DNA of 63,645 nucleotides, the filler included, from Conidiobolus incongruus B7586 (Eukaryota), in the NCBI GenBank assembly GCA_000697335.1. It is 7 parts of 7 records of this genome, joined end to end, with 100 filler letters (N's around TTAATTAATTAA, not from the genome) between each part and the next. Parts side by side here need not be neighbours in the genome. Positions count along the whole stretch, not along the records: positions 60,416 to 63,645 come from JNEM01006533.1; 6 more parts are not named here. One strand, written 5' to 3'. A program made the position numbers and the translations under genes. Position 1 is the stretch's first letter; every line of letters begins with the position of its first letter. The notes under the pieces are model-generated. The model was given only the letters and a program-made list of their open reading frames with translations. It was not told the DNA's origin and ran no database searches. Below, piece after piece: positions 2,031 to 63,645 of the stretch.

Positions 2031-4019
2031 TGTAAATTTAATATAAATTTTAATATAGGTTGTAATGATAATTGTGACAGGATAGATTTTGTTGTTTAAA
2101 CTCTGTTTGATTAATATAAAATTGTATGGATTGATCTAGCTTTAATCATTTTTATGTTCATTAAAATTTAACAATTGTATAAGTTTAAAAAACTGACAAT
2201 ATTATCTTAATAAATAATAAAAATAATAGAATAGTTTAAACTTCATTTCAATCATAGTTTACAAAATTAGTATTAATATCGATTTCTGAATATAGTAAAT
2301 TAAAAAGATTATATAAATTATTTAAACTAAAATATCCTTACACTGAGTTTTTGGATATTTATCAACCAGTTGGGGCCATTACACTAAAAACAGATCACAA
2401 ACGGGGTAAATAAACTTACCAGACAGTGATAGAGCATTCACCTATGCAATAAATTCGACATAGATCAATTCTGTCATAGTTGAACCAAGGATCTAAATCA
2501 TATAGTCAATAAACGAAAATATATCCATTAAATATATATATATATATTATATTGAATAGCTTACACAGCTAAAATCAACTAACACTCGTACTGAGGCCGT
2601 TAATAATCATTCAAAACCTATCAATCTCAATCAAAAGCATCATTCATTAATGAATACTTCCAACTTCTGATTTTTCATTGAATAAATAATTCGCTGTAAA
2701 TAATATGTGTTTTTAGGACTGAAAAAGGTACAGTTAACCAAGATTGACCAACTTGACGACTTCTGGAAATAATGCGAATTTTATACTATAATTATTAATA
2801 CTAAAAAGTAAAATTAATGTATGTTGTTGCAATTTACTTGTTTTAATTGACTACTAAATTGCTCCCGTCCTAATTGCTTGACTTTATTTTCACTTGAAAT
2901 GACTCCAGAATTCGCGAAATACAGCCTCTTGTGGAAGGCTGAAATATCAAGGCTTTTTAACAATTTAGTCATTTCTATAGAATTGTCGTCGAAAACTACA
3001 AAATAATGAATATTGATATTTGGTGATATTTACCTAATCTCAATATTCAAATACTCAATTGTTTCTTAGATCTTAGTATCACTATCCGTAATCTTAGTAG
3101 CCAAAGTATAATAAATGTTAGTAGTATTAATATTCAACAGGTAATCATTTTTAAATTATGAATAAATCTTAGTCAAAAGCTTATTTCGCAATATGTATAT
3201 ACACGGATTTTATCAAAATTATTATGGGTCAAACTCTAAGTTATAAATTAATTGAATTTTTTAGTTTGGAATATTGGTTGATATTGAAAATGATTTATAT
3301 TGATTTCACAACATGAATTTTATTATAAGACCTGGATATAGTGTTAATATTCTGAGTAAATAGCATTCAAAAATTGCATCTAGAAACTAAATTAATGCTT
3401 GTTTGGTTAATGTGAATTCATCCAATATATCATTAATTAGAAGAGGGGGAATTCAGAATCAATTCAACAAATTCATTTATACATATTTCAGTGGTTTCAT
3501 CATTCATTTAGCATGTATCATTATTACGTTGATTCAAAATCACTTTTGTATTATTAGTTAAAACAATTCTCTCAATTATCATTAGTGTGATCATTGACTA
3601 GTTCATTCAATACATTTGATGACTTGAATCATGATGTATGAGTAACAAATTGTGATATGGTTAATGCAATACAAGAAACTTGAGACCCAAACAATTAACT
3701 CAAGTGAGAATCCATACAAAATTAATAATTTCAACGATACGGAGTAATCAAACAAAAAATTTCCTTAATTACATATTGAATGAACGGAAGTGAGTTGGAT
3801 AGGAGGGATAATCAATCCAGAGCAATTTCCCCCTCCTGAATGAAAGATATCCCATCACTTCAATATCAAACACCAATAATCGTTATGATACTAATGTCTT
3901 CCCAATTCAATTGAAAATATTCCAATTCTGTACATTCTCCCTGACTTTATTTTTGTTTTTCACTCCCACTCGTTCAATATTCTTAGTGTTCTTTGGTTTT
4001 TATTCAAGTATTCAAGTTA

Positions 4020-5334
4020 ATGTCTTCTCCAGCAACTCAGCCCCATAGAATTCGTCTTAGACTGACTTTTGGGTCACCTACCACTATGAGATTGAACCGT
4101 TCTGAAGGTCTTGCGAACCGGTCAATGAATTTGCATTATGTAAATTCGCAACCTACTCCATCTAGTGCTACAAGTAATGCAAGTCATAGGAACTTACTCA
4201 ACTCAGCTAACGAAAGAAACTCCGAAGTTGGGTCGAGCTCAAACTCGGAACAGGAAGCATCGCCAACACCACTTTCAAATTCTTTGTCTAATGAAGGATC
4301 CGAAGATTCTAACCAGACTGCTAATTCCATCACTCTCAATGAGGCACATGAACCGAATAGTATTCCTACTATAACTCAAAGGCGTCGACTACTAAAACTT
4401 CCACGAAAAACCATAACTCAAACTGAGTCAGTATCACCTTCTAATTATTCACAAACTACTATATCCCAAATTACCTTAAAGTCAATCCCAATTCTGAGAA
4501 AGCTTTACATACCCAAAAGAAAATTCAGAGGTACCAAACGAAGTATTGTGAAAATCGAAAATTCTGAAAATATGTCGGATAGCCATATACCTATACCTAC
4601 TAGGGGTCTACAGCTCAAGACGCATCCAGTTTTTGGGTAAGTGATAATTTTTTTGAATTAATTTGTAATACTAATATACCTATTATAGGATTAGAGGGTC
4701 TCTAGCATTTAAGAATAAACATTCTAAAAAATGTAAGTTATTAATTATAAATCAATCAATACATACACTAACTTATAAAATCCAGCACGACGCAAGGGAC
4801 TCCAACCCTTAGTAAAACGAGTATTGCTAAAGAATGCGAATATGGCAGCATTTGAACGAATCAAGCTCTTGAAAGATGCCAAACCGCGGGGATGGAAATT
4901 AGAGAAAATTGACAAGTTATCTGACGAAAGTTCTGATACCTTTGTGAGAGCATGGAGACCAAGTAAGTAGAATCTATCAGTATAAACCCTTCAATATACT
5001 AATTCAATTGATAGCATCAAATAGAAAAATTCGACCGATCATTCCACCTTCTGCGATTCCAATCAGCAAAGCTCCTAAGATGCCAACACGCACAGTACAA
5101 CCCCACACAATACCACCACCTTCCAATGTTAGCAAAACTATTACCGCGAACCGTGGTGCAATTCCCGTCCTGTCGTTCATAGACGAGAATGGCAACAAAC
5201 GATTGCAATGTCCAGGTAAAGATTGTCCCAAACATTTTGCAGATCGGTGCGGTCTTAACCGTCATAAGAAAAAGTATCATCCAGAGTTGGAAGATGCGGG
5301 ATTGTCCCAATTATCCAAATCTAACCATCACTAG
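4020..5334 (+). CDS. C2H2 zinc-finger protein, paralogue A (4 exons: 4020-4636, 4689-4732, 4786-4962, 5015-5334)
   Basis: GT-AG splicing joins the ORFs in frame; C-terminal finger CPGKDCPKHFADRCGLNRHKKKYH; same intron positions as paralogue B. Confidence 0.88.
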
Positions 5335-5896: not shown

Positions 5897-7264
5897 TTAT
5901 GATGAGAGTTGAATGGGTGGTAATTGAGCTCCGAGTGGTCCAATCTCGGGATGATGACGATTCTTGTGGCGATTGAGACCACAGCGGTCTGCAAAGTGCT
6001 TGGGACAGTCTTTACCAGGGCATTGGAGTCGTTTGTTGCCATTCTCGTCGATAAATGTGACTACTGGAATCATACCTTTGTCGTTTGTCGTGGGTTTGGG
6101 TATTGTTAGAGCCTTGGGTGCAGGAATGGTGTGAGGTTGAACAGGTTTTGAAATATTTGTCTTACGATGGATTGCCGACACTGGTGGTTGAATGAATGAT
6201 GATTGGATCTTGCGATTGGATGCTAGAATTTGGTTAGTTTCAGGAATTACCAATTCGTTAGGTTTAAACTTACTAGGTCGCCAAACGTAGGCTACATTGC
6301 CTTGAAAGTTGCTGTCCTGAGGAGTGATCGATTCCAACTTCCACTTTCTGGGTTTCAAGTCTTTTTGTGCCATAATTCTGTGTAATGCCATCATATTCGC
6401 ATTTTTAACTAGTACCCTTTTGAAAAGTGGCTGAGGACCTTTCCTACGACCTATACAAAATGTTGATTAGTAATTGAAAATCATTTCAAAATTCTTAAAA
6501 TGTTAATATTGCAAATAAACGACCATAGTTTTGGATATAATAATTTGGACTTACTCTTTTTATGATATTTAGCTTTCCAAGCCATTGAACCTCGAATACT
6601 AAGTTAAAACAGTTAGAATAATAAAAATAAATAGCCAAAATTTATCAACTTACCCAAATACTGGCTGAGATTTGATCTCGATCTTGCGAGTTGGAATATG
6701 CTCTTGATCAATTGTATTTTGAGCGCTGGTAGGTTTGAGTACACTTCGTTTAGTGCCACGAAGTTTGCGCTTAGGGGGATACAACTTCTTAGCCAGCTGA
6801 ATTTGCGTAGGGGTAGGTGTTGTGGTGGTTGACACAGTTGCTTGTGATACTGGTGATGTCGAATCGGAAGAAAATGTAACAAATTTTTTGCGAGCTGCTT
6901 TAAGAAGTCGGGGTCGGTATGGAACATGTTGAGTAGCTGTAAATTGATCAGCGGAGTCATCATTGGAAGGTTCAGGTAATTCGGTTGGAGTAGTGGCTTC
7001 ATCAGGTGAACTAGAGAGGGGTGTAGGAGAAGTAATTGGGTGTTGAAATTCTTGCTCATGTGCAGAAGGACTAGAGTCGACAGAGGGATTGAGAAGATTA
7101 GTGAGCTTGGCAGGTGATATTATGGTTTTAGTAGGTTGAGCTGTATTGAGGTAGTCTGTATCAGGTGAGCGCTTAAGGGAAGTTGGTACGGTGGCGTGAG
7201 CTGGAGGGTTGGTCGTATTGAGACGAAGCTTCACAGGAGATTGAGTGTAAGAAGGAGATGACAT
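5897..7264 (-). CDS. C2H2 zinc-finger protein, paralogue B (4 exons), convergent with paralogue A
   Basis: Finger CPGKDCPKHFADRCGLNRHKNRHH; shared blocks KKLYPPKRKLRGTKRS, PVFGIRGS, RRKGPQPLFKRVLVKNANM; matching introns. Confidence 0.88.
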
Positions 7265-9015
7265 AAAATAAATAAAAATAAAGCGTAAAATTAAAGGTAG
7301 AGAATAGGAAGAAGAGAGTTAAGAAATAAACGAAGAAAAGAAGTGGAGGCTAAGATGAAGCTGAATGAGAATTTAGCATAATTGAAAGCGCACAATATAT
7401 GGATTCCAATTGGATTGGATTAGTTTGTGATAAGTTGGCAATTGAACGCTTGAGGGGGGAAATAATTGCATCAACTGTAACCCAATGATATGATGAGACA
7501 GGATGGGAGGATAAAAAAAGATCAATTCGCAATTGCCCACAATTCTAAGCCTGTATGAGGTGGGCTAATTGCGGTGGGTTCATTCCAAGCATGCAATATA
7601 TCCAGGCATCAGTATCATATTCAAGCTTAAAACCCTTTCTAACCCTATTCTTTGACCCATCTCTCAAATATACAACATATTTAATCACAGTACAAAGGTA
7701 CTCAATACATAATTTTATTCAATAAGACCTTATCCATCGCTGAATATTTCATAATTACCATGAATCAACCAGTTCGGAAATATATCAAACTTATTAAAAA
7801 TTCACAACTCCTCATCATTCAACTTTCAATTCCATTTCTATTAATCAATTTAAATACAAATAAAAATAAAAGAGTAAAATATGAAAAAAACACAATTCAT
7901 AAACTTATATATTACAAAAATGTTATATTACTATTCAATATCTCAACTTGCGTTTTTGCATTTCAAAAATCTCATTTTCCTAAAGTTTTCGAACCTTACA
8001 ATATTATTTTCAAAAATTTTTTACTTTAAAAATCATTAAGTTTGCGTTTTACTATATTGGGAAATTTACAGTATTGATAACACTTTCCTAATTTTATTCA
8101 GGCTAAATCTCTAATTGCATAAATTTGTTAGAATTGTTGAGATTGAATTAAAATGGCAAGTTGGGAGTTTTGTTAGATAATTGGAAGTGATTAGTGATCC
8201 ATTTAAAAGTATAATATAATTTGTACTGTGTTTAACGGTTATTAAATTAACTATTATTAAAGATAAGATGAATTTAATGAATATCTAATAATTATTAGCT
8301 GATTCACTTTGATCACAAGTTTTGAATAGTTGAAATAACGTAGTAACAAAGCATAAAATAACTATGCAAATAATTAGATATGAAATAAAGATATATACTC
8401 TAGCATTTTCATTTCAACGAATATTATCAATATAAAATATTTAACTATATTGAAAATATTTTGATAAAAATAATAATAAATTATTTTTGTTTTAAATTTT
8501 GATAACTTATTAAATTTAATCAATATTGGTAATTATAAGTTATGATTAAAGTTGGTATGACAAATAATTTGAAACATTTTTGAATTCTGAAATAAAATTA
8601 AATAACAAAATATTTTTTAAACATGATTATTTACAATATATGTGATTCTGTGATTATGTTAGATATTTCATTAATTTTTTATTAAAGTATTATAAATAAA
8701 ATACTGCTGTTTAAATATTCAAAGTAATAAAATAAGCAATAAATATTCCTAAAAATTCCAAATAAATCCTTTGTTATATATAAATTAAAATTCCCTTCCT
8801 AAAATTAAAAGATAAATAATTGTGGCAAAATATCAATAACATGTCAAATAATACCAAATTTAAAAAACCAATGATTAAATCAAAATTTGTATCAAAATGA
8901 ATCGCTTGCCAAATTTCATAGTGAAACTGAAATAGATATTTAAATGCAATGGTATCAATATTCATATAATCAACTATGTTGATTATATTTAAAACATACA
9001 TTTAATAGTATCTAT

Positions 9016-26649: not shown

Positions 26650-27023
26650 TATAAATATTATAATAATTGCTACTTAATTGATATTTTTCTTTACTCTAAT
26701 ACACTACTAAAGACCTAATTATTTAAATTAAACTTTATCAATATTTTACAAATCCCTACATCTGAGTAATTTTACTATTACTTAACCTTATATACTTATA
26801 TATATATATTCTACTTAACTATAAGAAAAACTTAAATTTTTCTCTCTAGCTGGGATTTTAACTTATATTACTTCTTACACAAATAAACCTTTTGCTTAAC
26901 TATTAATATATTTCTTATTATTATTAGTTAATACCTTAATATTAAAGGATTTATTTATTATATATTTCTTAAAGTATTAAAAAACTTGCTTCTTTTACCT
27001 TTAACTATTGTTATTTATTTATA
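26650..27023 (+). repeat. 5' LTR of the Gypsy element
   Basis: Colinear with 31878-32251 without indels; followed by a PBS-like TAATAGC (restorable to TGGTAGC). Confidence 0.9.
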
Positions 27024-30000
27024 TAATAGCAATAATTAAAAAAATTTAAAAGTACTCTTATTGCTATAGTTGAAGATTTTATAATTATAACTTATTATTC
27101 TATATATAACTAAAATAAAATAAACACTTAAAGTTTTAGTAATAATAATTATTATTCTATTAGTTAATAAGATTTCATTAATATTGATAGTATCTTTATT
27201 AAATATAGATTGAAATTAAAGTAAACTTAGTAAATTAACTATATACAATAAATAATAGCTGAATTAAATAGTTATAAAATTCTATTATTTATTTTAAAAA
27301 GCTTTAACAAAGTTGAGTTTTTTGTAAATAACTTAATTACTTATAATAGCTTAAAATCTCTTGAAAAACTAGAAGAATTTTTAAACAAACTAACTAAATT
27401 CTTTAAAGAAATCAAAACTCTAAATTTATATAATTTAGTAAAAATTTTAACTTTTAAATTAACCTCTTATGTTAAACTCTAGTAGTATATACACTTAAAA
27501 AACACACTTAATCTTACTAGTAGTTTTTTTCATCCTAATAAAATCTAAACATTTAACTAATTTAAATAAGCAATTAAATAAAGGTTTTACCTATTAAATA
27601 TAGTTATTCTAGTTTAAAATAAGCTAGCAAAGATTATTTAAAATCTTTAGTTAGAAATTTTATAAAAGAATTTACCTAGCTTAAATTAATGATTTTTAAA
27701 TTATCTAAAAGTGAAAAGAAAAATAAGTTTAAGAAAAAACTTAAGCTTAATATTTTTATAGTTGTCTACTCTAAGATTAATATAAAAACAGCTAGTTTTG
27801 CTATTTTAACTAAAATAGCTATTAAGATAAAAGATGATTAGAATTATATTAAAAAAATAAATAAGAGTTTTTATACAAACTTTAATAGTTCTTTATTTAA
27901 ATCATCTAATCCTAATATTATAAATATATCTGTGATATAGAAAAAAGAGTATCTAACTATAAAAAAAATTATACTTTAGAAAAAATAAAAAATACTTTTA
28001 TTATAAATAAATTAATATAGATTATCATTAGAATAAATATCTTAAGAAGTTATTTAATAGTAGATACTTTAGTAATATAGTTTTAAAAAATAATATTCAA
28101 GTAAATAATAAAAAAAGTAATTAACAGATTAATAATTAATTTAGTTTAAATTTAACCTAATGTGGTTAAAATAATAAAGAGAAATCTTTGTTAAAAATTC
28201 TTTATAATGAACATTTAAAATTATATTTAAATGATTAAAAATTATTTTAAAATTTTTTAGAGAAGAAGAGTAATATCTATTTAAACCTTGATTTATTAAA
28301 TTTTAATAAAAATAAATTATGTTCCTTGTAAATCTTTAAAGATATTTTAAATAAACACCTTATTTTTTTCTTATTTAACTTTAAATATAATAGTATACTT
28401 ATTAATAAAAATATTGTTAAGAGATTTAAACTATCTTATAATTAAATAAATATAATATTAAATTATACAAATAATACTTAATAAACTATTAAAAGATTTT
28501 TATATTGTAATATTTTATTAACAATAAGTTATTTTAAAAAAATCTAATTTATAATAAGTTTTATAAAATAAAACACTATTATAAGTTTTAGTTGGTTTTA
28601 AAAGTATTATCTAATTATCATAAATAAAAGTTTGTTTAATGAGTATATTTTTTTGTTTTACTATAATAATTTAAGTTATAAATTAATAACTAATTTTATT
28701 ATAGAAGAAGGTACTAATAATATTTTTTTTAATATTATAATAATTTCAAGAATATCTTTTGTAAATTTAATTAAGAAGTTAAAAAATTAATCTAATGTAA
28801 TTTATATCAACTTTAACACTATCTCTACTTTTTTAAAAAATCTAAAAGATGCTTTAAATATTAAAAATTTATTGTATAAGGTTATTAATAAATACAGAAA
28901 TATTTTTAAAATTTTAATTATTTTATCATTAAAAAAAATATATCCTATAAAATTAAACTATTATCTAACACTTAACTTTATCATAAATTACTTTATTATA
29001 TTTCTTTTAAATAGTGTAAAATTCTTTGTAAAGAAATAAATAAGCTATTAGAATTAAGTTTTATATAACTTTCTATAAACTTTTAAAGTTTGCTAGTTTT
29101 TTTTGTTAAAAAATTTAATAAAGGTTGGTGATTTTATATTGATAATAAAGTTTTTAATAGTAAAATAATTAAAGATAAAACTTTTTTACCTAATTTAAAT
29201 AAAATTAGAGATAGATTTATAAGTATAAACTACTTTACTAAAATAAATTTTAAGAATAGTTATTATAATATTTTAGTTGATAAATAATATATCTTTTTAA
29301 TTGCTTTTAATTATATATTAAAATATTATAAGTTTAAAGTTATAAATTTTAAACTTTATAACATACCTGCTATATTTATAAAACTTATAAATAGTTTATT
29401 TAGCAAGTATTATAATAATTTTATTTTGTGCTACTTAAATAATATTTTAGTGTATTCAAAAACTTTAGATGATTATATTTTATATATAGAGATTATCCTA
29501 CAGATATTTAGCTAAAATTAGTTGCTAGTAAAATTCTCTAAATATGTTTTTATTGCTTTATCTATTTTATTTTATAATTACATTATCTTTTCTAAAAGAA
29601 TTTTTATTTACTTAATAAAACTTTAAAAATTATATAATATTATAATCTTTGCTAATAAATATTAAGTAATAACTTTTCTAAAATTAGTTATATATTTTAA
29701 AAACTATATTCTTATATTTGTTAAGTTTATTAAATTTTATCTAACTTATTAAAAAAGGATAAACTATTTACTTAAACCTTTAATGAAATTTTTTCTTTTT
29801 ATATACTAATTTACAAAATTGCTAAAGCTTTAATATTTGCTATATTTAACCTTAAATTACTAATAATTATATTTATAAATGTGTCTATCTATACTATAAG
29901 TAATTAAATAGTATAAAGCAAAATTATTAAAGATTTTAAAATGTATAACTATTTTAAAACTTTAAAAAGGGTAATTAAACACTAAAAGGTTTTTAAATAT

Positions 30001-31877
30001 TTAAATTTAAAACCTTTAATATTTTCATTGAGAAAATTAATACCTATTAAACAAAATTATCATATACATAAGTAAAAAATGCTTACATTAGTAGAAATCA
30101 TAAAAAAGTTTAGTCTTTAGTTGTTTTATTAAGAGTTTTTATGCTTAATCAATAATAAATTATTAATTTACTTAAATTCACAAAGTATTATCTAAAAAAT
30201 AAATTAGATAGATAAAAACTATCCAAGAGTATTAATTCTTAATTAAATATTTTCTTAGTAAGTAAAATAAAGTTATAGATATATTGAGTAGAAACTTAAT
30301 TTATAAACTAGTATATAATAAATATAAAAAACTAATTAAAATTAGTTTAATAATTATTAACTTAAATAATAAAAACTTTAATCAGACTTTAAAAGAAAAA
30401 CTATAATATAATAACTTTTATTTGATAATTAAAGCTAAAATAGAAGAGAATAATAAGAAAAAACTTTCTAAATATAAAAGATTTTAAATATTAAATGGTT
30501 TGTTATATAAATATAATAAATTATATATTTTAAAAATCCTTAACCTCTAATTAATAATTTTAAAATAATATTATAATTATAAATTAAATAGACATTAAAG
30601 TTATATTTAACTTATTGATAAAATTCAAGTAAAATATTAAATACTAAAATTAATTAAGTTGGTAAGAAGTTACTACAAATTTTATAATAGTTGTTAAAAA
30701 AATAAGTATAATATAAAAGAAATAGTTGGTGAATTAAATTCTTTATCTTTATTATTTAAACCTTAAGCTTAAATACAACTCAACTTTATAAAAATACCTA
30801 AGTTAAAAAAGGGCTATGATAATATTTTAATAGTTGTTAATTTATACAATAGATTTACTTATTTTTTTATAAAATAGTTATAATGTTTAAAATAACTAAC
30901 TTGTTAATTAAGAAAGTAATTTTATTATATAAATTACCTATTACTATTATTACTAATAGAGATTTAAATTAACTTTAAAATTCTAGAAAACTTTTATATA
31001 ACATATAAATATTAATATAAAGCTTAATATCATTCACTATTATTAATTAAATAAATTAGTTAAAAAAGTTATTAAAGCTTTAAAAAAGATGGTTAGAAAT
31101 TATATTAACTTTAATTAAGATAATTAAGAATCTTTCTTACTTTATTTATAATTTACTTATAATAATTTAATTAATTAATTTAGTAATTTAACTCCTTATT
31201 TTATAAATTATAAATAATATCCTAACTTATTGATTAGTTTTAACTTAGATATTATTACTAATAAGTTTATTATGGATAAATTAGTAAGATTTAAATTAAT
31301 CCACCAAATAATTTTAGAATTAACTAAATTGAAACAAATATACATTGAAAATTATTATTTAAAATTCTATAAAACTCTATTTAAATATAAATCTAAGTCC
31401 CTAGTCTTTTTAAATACAATAGATATATTTTTCACCAAGTAAATATCTAGAAACAACATAAATCAAAAGCTTTTATTATGTTAGATTAAACTATTCTATA
31501 TTTTTAAAACAAGCTCTAAACTTAGAATTTTTAAATTAAAGTTATTAAAAACTTATAAATATTATTTAGTCTTTTATACCTTACTATTAAAAGTATACTA
31601 TTATCTCAAAAACAAGTTTCTTAATTAAAATTTTGAAGAACTTCTATTACCTATTATTAAAAATTAAGGGGATAAAGATATTATATTAATAAAATTTTTA
31701 CATATAAAATAAAATATAGAAAACTTTATTATTTTATAAAATGGTTAGGCTATCTTAATTTTAAGTTAATTTAAAAACCACTTGAAATAATTAAAGATAC
31801 TTATATTTATTTATCTTATATCAAAAAGATTAAAAAGAATAAAACCATATTAATAGCTTAATATAGTTTAAAAGGGG

Positions 31878-32251
31878 TATAAGTATTATAACAATTACTT
31901 TTTAATTAATACTTTTCCTTATTTTAATTTATTACTAAAAACTTAATTATCTAAATTAGATCTTATTAATATTTTATAAATCTTTATATCTAAGTAACCT
32001 TATTATTACTTAACCTTATATATTTATGTGTATATATTCTACTTATCTATAAAAAAGACTCAGATCTTTCTCTCTAGTTAAAACTTTAGCTTACATTACT
32101 TTTTACACAAATAAACCTTTTACCTAACTATTAATATATTTTCTATTATTATTAGTTAATATTTTAATACTAAAGGATTTAATTATCATATATTTCTTAA
32201 AATATTAAAAAACCTACTTCTTTTATCTTTAACTATTATTATTCACTTACA
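31878..32251 (+). repeat. 3' LTR of the Gypsy element
   Basis: Follows the PPT, ends in …TTACA, followed by TSD ATTAT. Confidence 0.9.
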
Positions 32252-32767
32252 ATTATAGTTTAAAGAAATATATTATCTTTAGATATAAAGTATTTTTATA
32301 AGGTTAATAGAAAAATTAATATTGAGATATTAAAATATTTTAAATAATAAATTAAAAAAATATTAAATAATATAAGCTAAGTAAATTAAATATAATTTTT
32401 TAGTAAAATAATACTTTTTTTTATATTATAAACTTTATTATCAAATGGCTTAAAAATAACAAAATAATTATTATAAAATAACCTTTTTAATTTTTTAATT
32501 TTAACTTAATTAAATATCTTAAAGATTAACCAAAAGAATTAATTAAATTAATTCCCCCTAATAAAAAATTTAAATTAATTTTAAAAATATATTTAAGAAG
32601 CAAAAATAATATTAATCTTATTTAATATAAAAATTTAATTAACTTTATACCTTATAAATATAAAGAGGTTAAAAAAGCAAAAAATAAATATATTCAATAT
32701 TAATTTTTCTATTATTATTAAAACTTATAAATTTTTAACTTATTTTAAATATATTTTTAATTTTATA
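32252..32767 (+). mobile_element. Tc1-like (DD34E) transposase relic, right part
   Basis: Homologous to the reverse complement of ~58830-59270 and ~62910-63250; restorable to FQQDN…H and WPPQSPD.NPIE motifs. Confidence 0.75.
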
Positions 32768-58589: not shown

Positions 58590-59876
58590 ATATTAACTTA
58601 TAAAAATAATACATAAAATCAAAAACACTTATATTTTTACTAATAACTTGATTAATATTTAAAGAAATAAATTTAAATTAAATAATTAAAGTTTATTATA
58701 TTTATTAATAATATATATAATTAAATAATGGTATTTAGTTATTAATTGTTTAAAATATAAACTCTTAAATTTTATTTAAAATAAGTCATAAATTTGTAGG
58801 TTTTTGGTGATAAAAAAATTAAAACTTAATATATCTATTTTTAATTTTTTTAATTTCTTTAATTTTATAGGGTATAGAATCAATTAACTTTTTATATCAA
58901 GAAAAGTTAATTTTGTTCTATATTTCTTAAATATATTCTTAAAACTGATTTAAATTTTTTATAAGGGGGAAAATTTTAATAGTTTTTTTAACTAATCTTA
59001 AAGATATTTAATTGGGTTATAGTTAAAAAATTAAAAAAGCTATTTTATAACTATTATTTTATTATTTTTAAACTATTTGGTAGTAATAGCTATAATATAG
59101 TAAAAGATATTATTTTGTTGGAAAATAATATTAGATTTGTTTAATCTATATTATTTAATAATTTTTTTAATTTATTATTTAAAATATTTTAATATATTTT
59201 AATATTAATTCCATTATTAACTTTATAAAGATATTTTATATTTAAAGACAATATATATTTTTAAACAATAAATAACCTATCATTATATTTTTAAATAAAA
59301 TTAATATAATGTTTATAAAGTAGTTTTATATCTTTTTTAAAGTATCTAGCTTTTTTATCAAATTTACTAAAGTATATTTTTATTTCATTAAATTAAATAA
59401 CCTTACTCTAATTAATTTTAGTTCAATATTAGTAGTGACATTTAAACTCTTACCTAGCTTTATAATGGGATTTTTTTAGTTAGGGGTGTTTTTTCTTAAA
59501 ATATAAGTGGTATCTATGCTAATGTAAAATATATATAATAATATCAGTGCTAACTAATATTCTTATATAGTTTTATAGTTCTTGCTATATTTCTACAATA
59601 ATATTATATTTACCTATATTAATTAACCTATAGATATACTTCTTATCATATTCATCTATAATTTTAACACACTTAAATTTAAGTTTAAATGTTTTTTTAT
59701 TACTATTCTTAATAGCTTTAGCTATAGTAAACTAGCTAACACTAGTAATTCTAACAATATTATAAGGTAATTTACCTTCTTTATAAAGTTGATTAATATA
59801 CAAGTAGATTTTTTTAGAGAGGGATTTAGGTATATTAATACTAATAAAAAAAATTTAGTATATCTGTAAAATATAA
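58590..59876 (-). mobile_element. Tc1-like element with eroded near-full-length transposase and one long TIR (~58590-58815)
   Basis: N-terminus mirrors 60166-60315; C-terminus restorable to FQQDN…WPPQSPDCNPIEHLW; TIR homologous to 59879-60105. Confidence 0.8.
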
Positions 59877-59878
59877 TA

Positions 59879-60315
59879 CACTAACCTGCAAAAGTGAGTC
59901 ATAAAATCAAAAATATATATATTTTAATTAATAATTAAAACAATTGTATATATTAGATTACTTGAAACTATAATATATAATTAAGGTATATTATTTAATA
60001 ATAGATAAATATATTTAGATATATTTAGTAAACTATTAGCAAAAATATTAACTCTTAATATTTAACCAAGGTGAGTTATAAATTTGTGGGTTTTTGAGAT
60101 AAGGGGATATATTTAACAATATATAACCATATCTTTTTTCTCTCTTTGTTATTATTTTATATAATATTTTACAGATATACTAAATTCTTTTTATTAGTAT
60201 CATTATGCCTAAATCCCTCTCTAAAAAAATCCACTTGCACATCAATCAACTTTGTAAAGAAGGTAAATCAACTCATGATATTGCTAGAATTACTGGTGTT
60301 AGCTAGTCTACTGTA
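59879..60315 (+). mobile_element. Left end of a second Tc1-like copy (TIR plus transposase start at 60205), inserted at TA
   Basis: TA|CACTAACCTGCAAAAG terminus; MPKSLSKKIHLHINQLCKEGKSTHDIARITGVS*STV is a Tc1-type HTH; cut by a gap. Confidence 0.8.
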
Positions 60316-60415
60316 NNNNNNNNNNNNNNNNNNNNNNNNNNNNNNNNNNNNNNNNNNNNTTAATTAATTAANNNNNNNNNNNNNNNNNNNNNNNNNNNNN
60401 NNNNNNNNNNNNNNN

Positions 60416-60573
60416 GGTACAAAGCCCCATTTACAAGTGATCAAGGCCGAATAGCCAGAGATCTGATCATTGGTAGTTTACCCCAGCTGGTAGGTATCAT
60501 GTTTCACAATCTGGCCTACAGAATGGCTGTGTCAGTGTCCTCAATGACGCTCCAAGAGCTAATAACCGTGACA
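60416..60573 (+). mobile_element. LTR-like cassette A (3' part only, cut by a gap), ends CCGTGACA
   Basis: Homologous to cassettes B and D in opposite orientation; followed by GTACA. Confidence 0.7.
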
Positions 60574-60578
60574 GTACA

Positions 60579-61111
60579 TGTCGCTGTTATTAGCTCTTGG
60601 AGCGTCATCGATGATACTGATACAGCCATGGTGTAGGCTAAATTGTGGAGCATTGTGCCTACAAACTGAGGTATGTTATTGATGATCAGTTCTCTGGCCA
60701 TCCGTCCATGATTAGCATTGAATGGAACATTAAAGAGGGAGACTAGATCAGCAGCAACAGTGGCAGTATGAGGGGTTGACATGCTAAGGCAGCAGGTCAC
60801 AGAATATCAGTGGGAATGGATGTAGAACGATTAGTGGGGTAGATCTCAAATAAGCTTTATGTGGCTCTTTGAGTGCGCTCGGAAAAACGGGGTTTTTAGA
60901 GTAGAAAAATATGATTTATTTGTAGAATAGCGTTGAGAGAGGTCTCTGTAGAATTGAGGGAGCAATATTGGTATAAGTAGGTCATGATAGATTAGGAACA
61001 TGATTATAAGAACACATTTGGTTCTCGGAGCATGTGGAAGTTGGGAAATCTCGGGGTTTTGGTAGTGATGTATGAGGGAGAGAAGGTGTCAATAATATAG
61101 CAATTGTCACA
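60579..61111 (-). mobile_element. LTR-like cassette B (533 bp)
   Basis: TG…CA termini (minus strand TGTGACAATTG…CAGCGACA), flanked by GTACA at 60574-60578 and 61112-61116. Confidence 0.8.
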
Positions 61112-61116
61112 GTACA

Positions 61117-61423
61117 TGTCACAGTTCTCAGTGGCATCACCACTGAAATCATGATCTACTGCGAGTTGACACCAATCTATTACCTGCACAATTAGACCTG
61201 TACCATACACTGGTAGGTAGGTCTCTAATAAACAGAAATATGTTAAGAACAAGTATAAAGCTCACTCTAGATGTTGCACACAATAACAAGCCAAAGCTCA
61301 GTTATTGTACCAAAGGTGTTATTTATACAATAATGTTAGTAATGAAATAGCTTTATGAACGCAATATGATTCTATTAGTAGAGTATTATGAGACTTAGGA
61401 AAAATGGAGCCAGATCCGTCACA
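61117..61423 (-). mobile_element. LTR-like cassette C (307 bp, different family)
   Basis: Minus strand TGTGACGGATC…CTGTGACA; flanked by GTACA (left) and ATATA at 61424-61428 (right). Confidence 0.7.
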
Positions 61424-61428
61424 ATATA

Positions 61429-62000
61429 TATCGCCGCTATTAGCTCTTTGTGCGTCATCTTGGACACTGACACCGCCATTGTGTGAGCCAGATTGTGAAG
61501 CATGGTACCTATGAACTGAGATAGGTTACAGATGATCAGTTCCCTAGCCATCCAACAATAATTACTGGTAAATGAGGGGTTGAAGAGGGTGACTAGACCA
61601 GTAGCAACAGTGGCAGTGTGAGGATCTGACATGCTAATGAGGCAGTGTCACAGAATATCAATAGGAGTGGATGTAGAGCAAATAATGGAATATGCCTCAA
61701 GTGGAACTATAGGTGGCTACTTGAGTATGTTCTGATGCGGACTTGGGATAGGAAAAAATATTTGTTTGTAAAGAAGAATAGAGAAAAAGTGCTTTTAGAA
61801 TTGAGTGGAAAGTGTTGGCACAAGTAGGTTATGAGGAGAAATAACATGGCTGTATGAACATGTGGATATTGGGATGTCAAGGGATTAGGACCTTTAGTCG
61901 CAGCTGGTTGGGATTATTTATATGGCTTAACGGAGGTGATTGGTGATTTGGTAGTGGTTTTTGAGTGAGAGAAGGTATCAATTAAATAACAATTGTCACA
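61429..62000 (-). mobile_element. LTR-like cassette D (572 bp), diverged homologue of B
   Basis: Minus strand begins TGTGACAATTG like B; flanked by ATATA at 61424-61428 and 62001-62005. Confidence 0.75.
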
Positions 62001-62466
62001 ATATAATTATTGAAGTTCTTATTCAGTGCTTTTATACATAACTCTCAATTACAATCTCTATTTACCTTAAATCATCAAATTAATAAATCGAAACTTTTAT
62101 ATTTTATTAATAGTTTACTATTTCTCAACTTATGTTATTATTTTGTCGGAGTTTAACATTTATTATATTAGCAGGTTGTAATCAATGTTTTTAAACACAA
62201 CATGAAACAATCATGATTTCTATTTTGTACTTCAATCGCCAACAATAATAGATCCATATTTATATACAAATATATAATGATTTTAATAAATACCTTAAAT
62301 GTATAAATAATTTAGACATACTCTCTTGAATCAATGCTTATTCTTTATAAAACTTGATATGACATGTAATAAAATATCCATAGCTTAAAGTTTATATACA
62401 ATATAATCTATACAATAAACATATTGAAATAAAACCATCTTATCATTAAATCGAATTTTTAATTCT

Positions 62467-62828
62467 TCACTGAAGTGTTCTTCCTTCAGAAATTTTCTTA
62501 ATTTTGAGTCGTTTCAACTTCCTCGAAATTTGATTCTGACTCAAGTTCAATTTCTTGGATAATTGGACTGTACTGAGATTGGGAAGCCCTTTCACAGCCT
62601 TGATCAATTCATCATCTGAGACCTCCCTAGTCACTACCCTCTCATTAAATTTATCATACAAACTCCTGTCATCACTGATAAGCCATTTATATCAGTAATA
62701 AACAATACCAATTTTTAGAGAATCTTTGCCATATAAGGTACAAAGTTGATTGTGAGCTTCTTTCACTGTCACATTACTGTTGAATAGGAATAGTAAAGTA
62801 CTTCGATTGCAAATTTGTCTAACTCCAT
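62467..62828 (-). pseudogene. Short Mos1/mariner HTH-only gene, disrupted
   Basis: RSTLLFLFNSNVTVKEAHNQLCTLYGKD…VYY*YKW…SLYDK…VSDDELIKAV…LSTVQLSKKLNLSQNQISRKLK; frameshift near the ATG and a TGG>TGA stop. Confidence 0.75.
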
Positions 62829-62879
62829 TATTTTGATTATTTAATAATTTAAGCTTTATTGAAGAATTTTGTGGATGAA

Positions 62880-63645
62880 TTTAAATTTTGATTTGAAAAC
62901 TGAGGAAAAGATTTTTAAATATATTCTTAAAATTGATTTAAATCTTTTATTACAGGAAAAACTTTAATAGCTTTTTTCAACTAATTTTAAAGATATTTAA
63001 TTAAAATATGGTTAAAAAATTAAAGAAGCTATTTTAAACTATTATCTTATTATTCTTAAGTTATTTAATAATAGAAATAATAATAATTTAAGAGGTATTA
63101 TCTTATTAAAATATTATTTTATTTTTTAACTTATATTAGTCAATAGTTTTTCTTAATTTATTATTTAAAATAATTTGATATATCTCAATATTAATTTTTT
63201 TATTAACTTTATAAAAACATATTATATTTAAAGATAATTTATATTTTTAAATTTAAATAATATAATGGTCTTAAAATAATTTTATATTTTTTAAAAATAT
63301 TTAATTTTTTATATTATCCTAATATTAAAAACTAGAGTAGTTATTATGTTTTTAAAAACCCTTATTATTTAAATTAAAGAAAAAACTATTTTTATTAATA
63401 TAAGATTTATGATGATATAAACTAAATAGATTAAAAATTAATTATAAAAGAGTTTAGATAAAATACAAAAATATATCATGTAATTAAATCAATATATGAC
63501 ATTTTTTAATTAAATTTATTAAAATATATTTCTATTGTATTAAATTAAATAATTATATTTTGGTTAATTTTAATTTAATTTTAATAGCAATATTTAAATT
63601 TTTACTTAAGTTTCAATAATTTTTCTTTAATTAAAGGTTTTTTTT
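62880..63645 (-). mobile_element. Tc1-like transposase relic running off the window end
   Basis: 62915-63250 is homologous to 58930-59265. Confidence 0.7.

Follow-up and report, generated by a model that had tools for sequence, protein, structure and literature searches.

A stack of four likely solo LTRs from two families, joined by single 5-bp duplications, in Conidiobolus incongruus, and what may set its insertion points

The window, the whole stretch of DNA analysed here, comprises 63,645 nucleotides (filler included) of Conidiobolus incongruus B7586 (GCA_000697335.1), in which seven parts of seven records are joined end to end. It is AT-rich and carries a DBP9-like helicase at 45.9–47.3 kb, with best named relatives in Zoopagomycota (~46–51% identity), as well as an inverted pair of related gene models, 3987–5334 (+) and 5897–7318 (−), with a common zinc-finger-like end that is 80% alike over 117 bp. 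Near its right end lies a stack of four LTR-like cassettes with 5 bases only between them, in the order A(+)-GTACA-B(−)-GTACA-C(−)-ATATA-D(−)-ATATA (Table 1). To the left, two Tc1-type relics stand back to back at 58594–60315, one on the minus strand and decayed, the other on the plus strand, less decayed and cut by the gap; more Tc1-type fragments occur at 32257–32599 and at 62912–63645 (very high contig depth). A single-copy Mos1-type HTH_48 relic with stops (62452–62850, −; E-value 5e-6) lies 450 bp beyond the right end of the stack. To the left of A, the gap is one of six identical 100-base placeholders, whose length need not equal the true gap size. The idea that the left contig stops within a left GTACA duplication, after its first 3 bases, was rejected: this contig ends inside a Tc1-type transposase relic, and the sister copy continues with GCT, not CA. 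The right flank is not Tc1, with scores of 74 and 96 and shuffles reaching up to 116.

Table 1 The stack, its left-hand gap and the full-length relative, in window coordinates
Feature	Coordinates	Strand	Description
Assembly placeholder	60316–60415		44 N + 12-base linker + 44 N; hides the 5' end of A and the left flank
Cassette A	60418–60573	+	3' 156 bp of a putative solo LTR of the A/B/D family; 5' part hidden in the gap
Spacer GTACA	60574–60578		Left target duplication of B
Cassette B	60579–61111	−	533-bp putative solo LTR, young
Spacer GTACA	61112–61116		Right duplication of B = left flank of C
Cassette C	61117–61423	−	307 bp, multi-copy, second family, likely solo LTR; flanks unequal
Spacer ATATA	61424–61428		Left duplication of D = right flank of C
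Cassette D	61429–62000	−	572-bp putative solo LTR, older; 3' end decayed to GCGATA
ATATA	62001–62005		Right duplication of D; then single-copy DNA
Element E, full-length decayed Ty3/gypsy retrotransposon	26650–32251	+	LTRs 26650–27023 and 31878–32251; ATTAT as TSD at either end; lies within a Tc1-type relic

Exactly 5 bp separate the cassettes at 3 of 3 junctions. B, C and D start with TGTGAC; A and C finish with GTGACA, B with GCGACA and D with GCGATA. In pairwise comparison A, B and D are 74% alike, and this likeness stops at the terminal hexamers. C has no match to the other three beyond the ends. The spacer is repeated at the opposite flank of B and D, but not of C, whose flanks GTACA and ATATA differ at 2 of 5 positions; with the composition of the window, the chance of the repeated second flank is 8e-4 for GTACA (B) and 7e-3 for ATATA (D). 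The bare motif ACA-N5-TGT, weak evidence alone, occurs eight times in the window, two of these in the stack. Coordinates and ends confirm the four-cassette anatomy drawn in the earlier note, with its lengths, its termini and no other spacer DNA. Among the 24 of 802 loose contig ends listed, those before 60418 run on as family interior. A and B together form an inverted repeat with 156-bp arms and a 5-base loop (60418–60736), a likely cause of instability or of the assembly break. B shows 6 differences in 437 bp to a multi-copy contig, and the nearest listed relatives of D show 78 in 456 and 70 in 396; D is far older than B.

A full-length relative, element E, lies 30 kb from the stack. Its LTRs of ~374 bp each are 83.6% alike, a purine tract precedes the 3' LTR, and the coding order is that of Ty3/gypsy: reverse transcriptase, RNase H, integrase zinc finger. 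The reverse transcriptase matches RVT_1 with an E-value of 5.8e-6, below the curated cut-off, and the structures 4ol8 (2e-13) and Ty3 polyprotein 7q5b (2e-12); RNase H matches at 6.5e-4, and the integrase zinc finger weakly, at 0.079. A chromodomain-like end was seen by eye only, and the Pfam search of E found no chromodomain, protease or integrase core, with 3 of 5 segments giving no match. Scored in a decay-aware manner against the two E LTRs, the first base of D aligns to position 10 of both and D beats 200 of 200 shuffles each, while the score of B is reached by 10 of 200 and 4 of 200 shuffles. Taken by themselves, the first 120 bp of D reach scores of 108 and 92 against E and 110 against B, with a background of at most 62. 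Nine extra bases, ending (A/G)TAT, precede the B/D-like start in the E LTRs (26650–26670, 31878–31898), which stop ~350–395 bp into B/D; the LTRs are related, with termini shifted at both ends.

Judged from these alignments, A, B and D are likely to be solo LTRs from a Ty3/gypsy family to which E is related. They have TG…CA ends with short imperfect inverted repeats, decayed in D and hidden at the 5' end of A; B is flanked by GTACA/GTACA and D by ATATA/ATATA, and A-type 3' ends elsewhere have 18–23 unlike flanks. The kinship to B and D lies at the 5' end; with other termini and no A-like 3' part, E is not the direct parent. On its ends, size and copy number, C is probably also a solo LTR, from a second family: it has TG…CA ends and is multi-copy, with flanks unequal at 2 of 5 positions. 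The decay-aware comparison of C with E gave no match, and no full-length parent of C was found in the window. A search of metagenome contigs with a 23-base family motif gave 0 matches.

Repeats in the window are strongly decayed by C>T/G>A changes, with a GC content of 10–16% and CpG near zero. In the E LTR pair (26.6/31.9 kb; LTR GC 16–18%), 57 of 61 differences are transitions. The stack is much less decayed: 80 of the 138 differences between B and D are transitions, GC is 36–46% and CpG is kept. The dominance of transitions claimed for the repeats thus holds in the AT-rich relics and is much weaker in the stack itself. E, with 12–16% GC, no CpG and an intact TSD, bears the marks of RIP-like hypermutation, which the solo LTRs at 60–62 kb largely escaped; a RIP-like signal is described for entomophthoralean fungi in the cited part of PMC11105155.

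Contigs from one sample, which may be the source of the window, were taken from four runs and aligned to 60416–63000 at 80% likeness. The results given here cover 15 of 47 joints, 12 of 53 joint-letter rows, 24 of 802 loose ends, 32 of 4954 pieces and 40 of 338 variant places. The runs used contain 0.76–0.81 of sampled words, and runs X5–X7, with next to none, were left out; contigs resembling human DNA were filtered out, which may remove tRNA-bearing contigs. One contig carries D from 61598 via ATATA to 62943 with 0 differences. The residual depth, calculated as the depth of all letters minus that of the other letter, agrees between position 61383 (C) and position 61461 (D), with 43.0/43.1, 91.0/91.1, 96.7/96.7 and 15.8/15.8 in the four runs, so one contig likely bridges C|D; the native letters of 61265–61461 are carried on one contig. 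At 61169 and 61197, also in C, the residual is zero in 4 of 4 runs and the letters of the window occur in no aligned contig, so that the native 3' part of C is missing from the aligned set. The A|B and B|C joins are neither supported nor refuted by the contigs listed. The matching GTACA flanks of B argue that the A|B and B|C sides belong to one insertion.

The same contigs point to joins at other loci. Four of the 15 joints listed (of 47) connect element end to element end, the other 11 being switches between A/B/D homologues or internal indels. The join 60570→61117 links an A-type 3' end to a C-type 3' end through 8 letters, read as a decayed 3-base end plus TTCTC, and the join 62002→61117 links a D-type 5' end to a C-type 3' end with the spacer ATCAG. 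In 60568→62002, listed without spacer letters, the copies stand head to tail, the 3' end of an A-type unit meeting a D-type 5' end. In 61331→60429, 483 letters separate a C-type copy from the A-type 3' part that comes next, in agreement with 92 + 5 + 386 and an A-type copy of 531 bp. All four joins have approximately single-copy depth in 4 of 4 runs and are 12–21% different from the window where listed, and thus represent other loci. A further piece of 468 bp with 54 differences extends 15 bases beyond the 5' end of B and may be a fifth join.

A-type 3' ends were found in 18–23 contigs with unlike AT-rich flanks, most of those listed having free flanks, and a multi-copy B-like contig ends exactly at 61111. 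These observations indicate that GTACA is not part of either terminus, in keeping with the earlier note. The spacing is exactly 5 bp in 5 of 5 joins with letters listed; the other 32 of the 47 joints may have other spacer lengths. By chance, 0.0001–0.5 exact abutments are expected (assumed copy numbers 100–1000, target spaces 2–80 Mb), and three were observed here plus at least two more. Since the 5-mers differ between loci, a preferred 5-mer is excluded, and stacking is recurrent in the genome rather than the property of a single memory locus. The idea of one constant 5-bp repeat has to be given up: the stack has two 5-mers, the flanks of C are unequal, and TTCTC and ATCAG appear at other loci. 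Joins of the same families do occur at other loci, though with no constant 5-mer, and the data support repeated integration of two solo-LTR-like families, in both orientations and in register with a 5-bp duplication.

Because the position is not fixed by the 5-mer, which is locus-specific, a host anchor or the resident end remain. We tentatively favor the resident end, at somewhat less than even confidence: a resident LTR end and the 5-bp duplication beside it would repeatedly set the next insertion point, giving a stack in which four likely solo LTRs represent two Ty3/gypsy-type families. A self-targeting rule, as raised in the earlier note, is thus plausible. From what LTR biology suggests, each cassette would have arrived as a full element. 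The integrase would have cut 5 bp apart at the old TSD, which would be recopied and turn X-old-X into X-new-X-old-X, and LTR–LTR recombination would afterwards have left a solo LTR. That a 5-bp staggered cut at an old TSD has this X-new-X-old-X outcome is established for LTR integrases and is described in the cited part of PMC5014426. C would have come first, at GTACA, and its right GTACA copy would have decayed to ATATA via two transitions; D would have followed on the right, and B and A later on the left. The site may be chosen by tethering of the integrase to resident LTR ends, or by ends that complete a preferred target motif or structure. Such end-directed insertion would be a side route, because most A-type 3' ends listed have free flanks.

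End-directed insertion fits two-sided growth, exact spacing and cross-family joins, the ends being common to the families (TGT(G/C)AC). Against it counts that E is not stacked at either end. Moreover, its prior is low because no LTR integrase with such a rule was found in the literature searched; there is a precedent in IS30. Its strongest form, in which a fungal Ty3/gypsy integrase targets resident LTR ends of its own and a second family, in either orientation, reusing the old TSD and with no host anchor gene, we consider rather unlikely.

The role given to the resident end could instead fall to a host gene. A Ty3/Tj1-like integration, with a Pol III gene (tRNA, 5S or U6) in the gap left of A and with new copies entering the gene-proximal TSD and pushing older ones away, is possible, although we hold it doubtful. 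Such a rule is known for several Ty3/gypsy lineages (cited parts of PMC5911963, PMC5006619, PMC4600332 and PMC5014426), and it would cover with one principle both the locus-specific 5-mers and the many free ends. The age trend from young B on the left to old D on the right fits it as well, and the 3' ends of B, C and D face left, as the Tj1 orientation bias would have them. Given this age order and no gene on the visible right flank, such an anchor could only lie in the gap. ARAGORN found 0 tRNA genes in the window, and a tRNA search with introns and a lowered threshold returned three weak calls, none flanking the stack and one inside C/D. Rfam gave three chance-level matches in the window and two in 61990–62500, so that neither a tRNA nor another Rfam gene was seen on the right flank, and a scan with A-box/B-box patterns found no B-box. 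The spacers also speak against an anchor on the left: two-sided growth needs 2 forward transitions, while left-anchor growth, if C is no chimera, calls for 4 parallel transitions or 2 reverse ones and is 4.5–10 times less likely with the rates assumed. Growth from the right was rejected; it would make D the youngest, yet D is far older than B. A weak further point against a Pol III gene is the AT-rich majority line behind the A-type 3' ends (18–23 free flanks, agreement 0.45–0.47), the simulated chance of which is 0.002–0.17 if half of the ends met a gene of 55% GC, 0.07–0.64 with a gene at a quarter of the ends and 0.56–0.98 with none. Finally, the related E, with its chromodomain-like end by eye only, sits in a Tc1 relic with no tRNA adjoining.

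Should C be a chimera, the argument from two-sided growth falls. Two shorter stacks, A-B-C' at GTACA and C''-D at ATATA, would then have been fused via C, by recombination between C copies or by misassembly, and stacking would still be real. The unequal flanks of C are consistent with such a fusion, as are the absence of the letters at 61169 and 61197 from every contig of the four runs, set against the native 61265–61461 on one contig, and the merely partial word content of the runs. We regard it as improbable: a random second 5-mer has a chance of just 0.013 of lying at most two forward transitions from GTACA, and a hole proves nothing, since contigs drop rare variants and records were filtered. 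Still more improbable is a hotspot, a strong site of local chromatin or DNA shape that takes repeated hits independently of the LTR end. P elements, hobo and jockey behave in this way and keep the TSD in the junction (cited part of 10.1101/158386), but the same source ascribes LTR tandems to shared-LTR recombination. Target motifs extend beyond the TSD (cited part of PMC3276498), and the flanking part of a motif would be lost after a first insertion with a 5-bp TSD; three re-hits here together with the joins elsewhere would require very large enrichment. A host trap or memory locus of CRISPR- or integron-like kind, entertained in the earlier note, is scarcely credible. The inverted A|B pair, which folds into one long hairpin (−187.5 kcal/mol, z −19.8), would on that account yield hairpin RNA silencing the family, but any two homologous LTRs in inverted order trivially give such a hairpin. 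The spacers of the recurring stacks are unrelated, with two 5-mers here and others elsewhere, and the stack has no dedicated site, leader or host recombinase gene and no adjoining integrase ORF; its cassettes are the elements themselves. A shared-LTR tandem from unequal recombination was rejected in view of the 74% identity, the inverted A, the unrelated C and the internal 5-mers. Unequal crossover and concatemer integration were ruled out on anatomy, and so were MITE-like TIR elements, the ends being 6 bp and imperfect only.

The targeting rules known for LTR elements draw on the host, through the Pol III machinery or chromatin marks, or on weak motifs. If insertion is directed by resident ends, TSD-LTR-TSD arrays would arise by a self-made safe-harbour rule, a eukaryotic retroelement counterpart of IS30 end-targeting, and the stack would preserve dated insertions in the form of a CRISPR array. 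Targeting that is exact to the base and governed by the ends of the element itself would represent a new safe-harbour strategy, common to two families. If the anchor is instead a Pol III gene, Ty3-like targeting would extend to a fungal lineage that diverged early, which would be a lesser result but still a real one.

Among known systems, the Ty3/gypsy elements Ty3, Tj1, Tyl3 and DGLT-A, aimed at Pol III start sites, resemble the stack in their 5-bp TSD, near base-exact position and leftover solo LTRs, and the Tj1 ends TGTCA…TGACA resemble the 3' ends here (cited parts of PMC5006619, PMC5911963, PMC4600332, PMC5014426 and 10.1101/2022.12.06.519325). They differ in that the stack has no Pol III gene on its right flank, its left flank being in the gap, and in that its spacer history fits two-sided growth better. 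IS30 inserts beside its own inverted repeats, and targeted insertion of IS911 is likewise cited (cited part of PMC9333248). As in the reading we favor, a DDE element enters beside the end of a resident copy by a second route besides ordinary insertion; however, IS30 is bacterial, uses single-strand transfer and is orientation-specific and limited to IRL–IRR, whereas both orientations and a full 5-bp duplication are seen here. Tandem casposons, which have a common TSD between them (cited part of PMC4779613), share the repeat-element-repeat form through reuse of one target and provide a formal link to CRISPR arrays, but they have a sequence-specific target and a Cas1-like enzyme, while the 5-mer here varies by locus. 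Tandem LTR arrays likewise line up LTR sequence at one locus. In plants they are described as shared-LTR products (cited part of PMC11899658); they alternate LTR and internal regions, in one family and one orientation and with no internal TSDs, and the stack shows none of these features. The open-licence literature searched yielded no paper on stacks of solo LTRs from several families in which single TSDs form the joins and a Pol III anchor is lacking.

In architecture, the stack corresponds to the element-TSD-element tandems of P, hobo, jockey and R1 (McGurk and Barbash, cited part of 10.1101/158386). These too result from repeated insertion at one site, with spacers that vary by locus, although the cases covered there are same-family dimers of DNA transposons or non-LTR elements, whereas up to four solo LTRs of two families stand here in mixed orientation. 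The structure, which the earlier note did not recognise as a described one, cannot count as undescribed, given that tandems of this form from double insertion are on record. The architecture is of a known kind, and it is the targeting rule that may be new.
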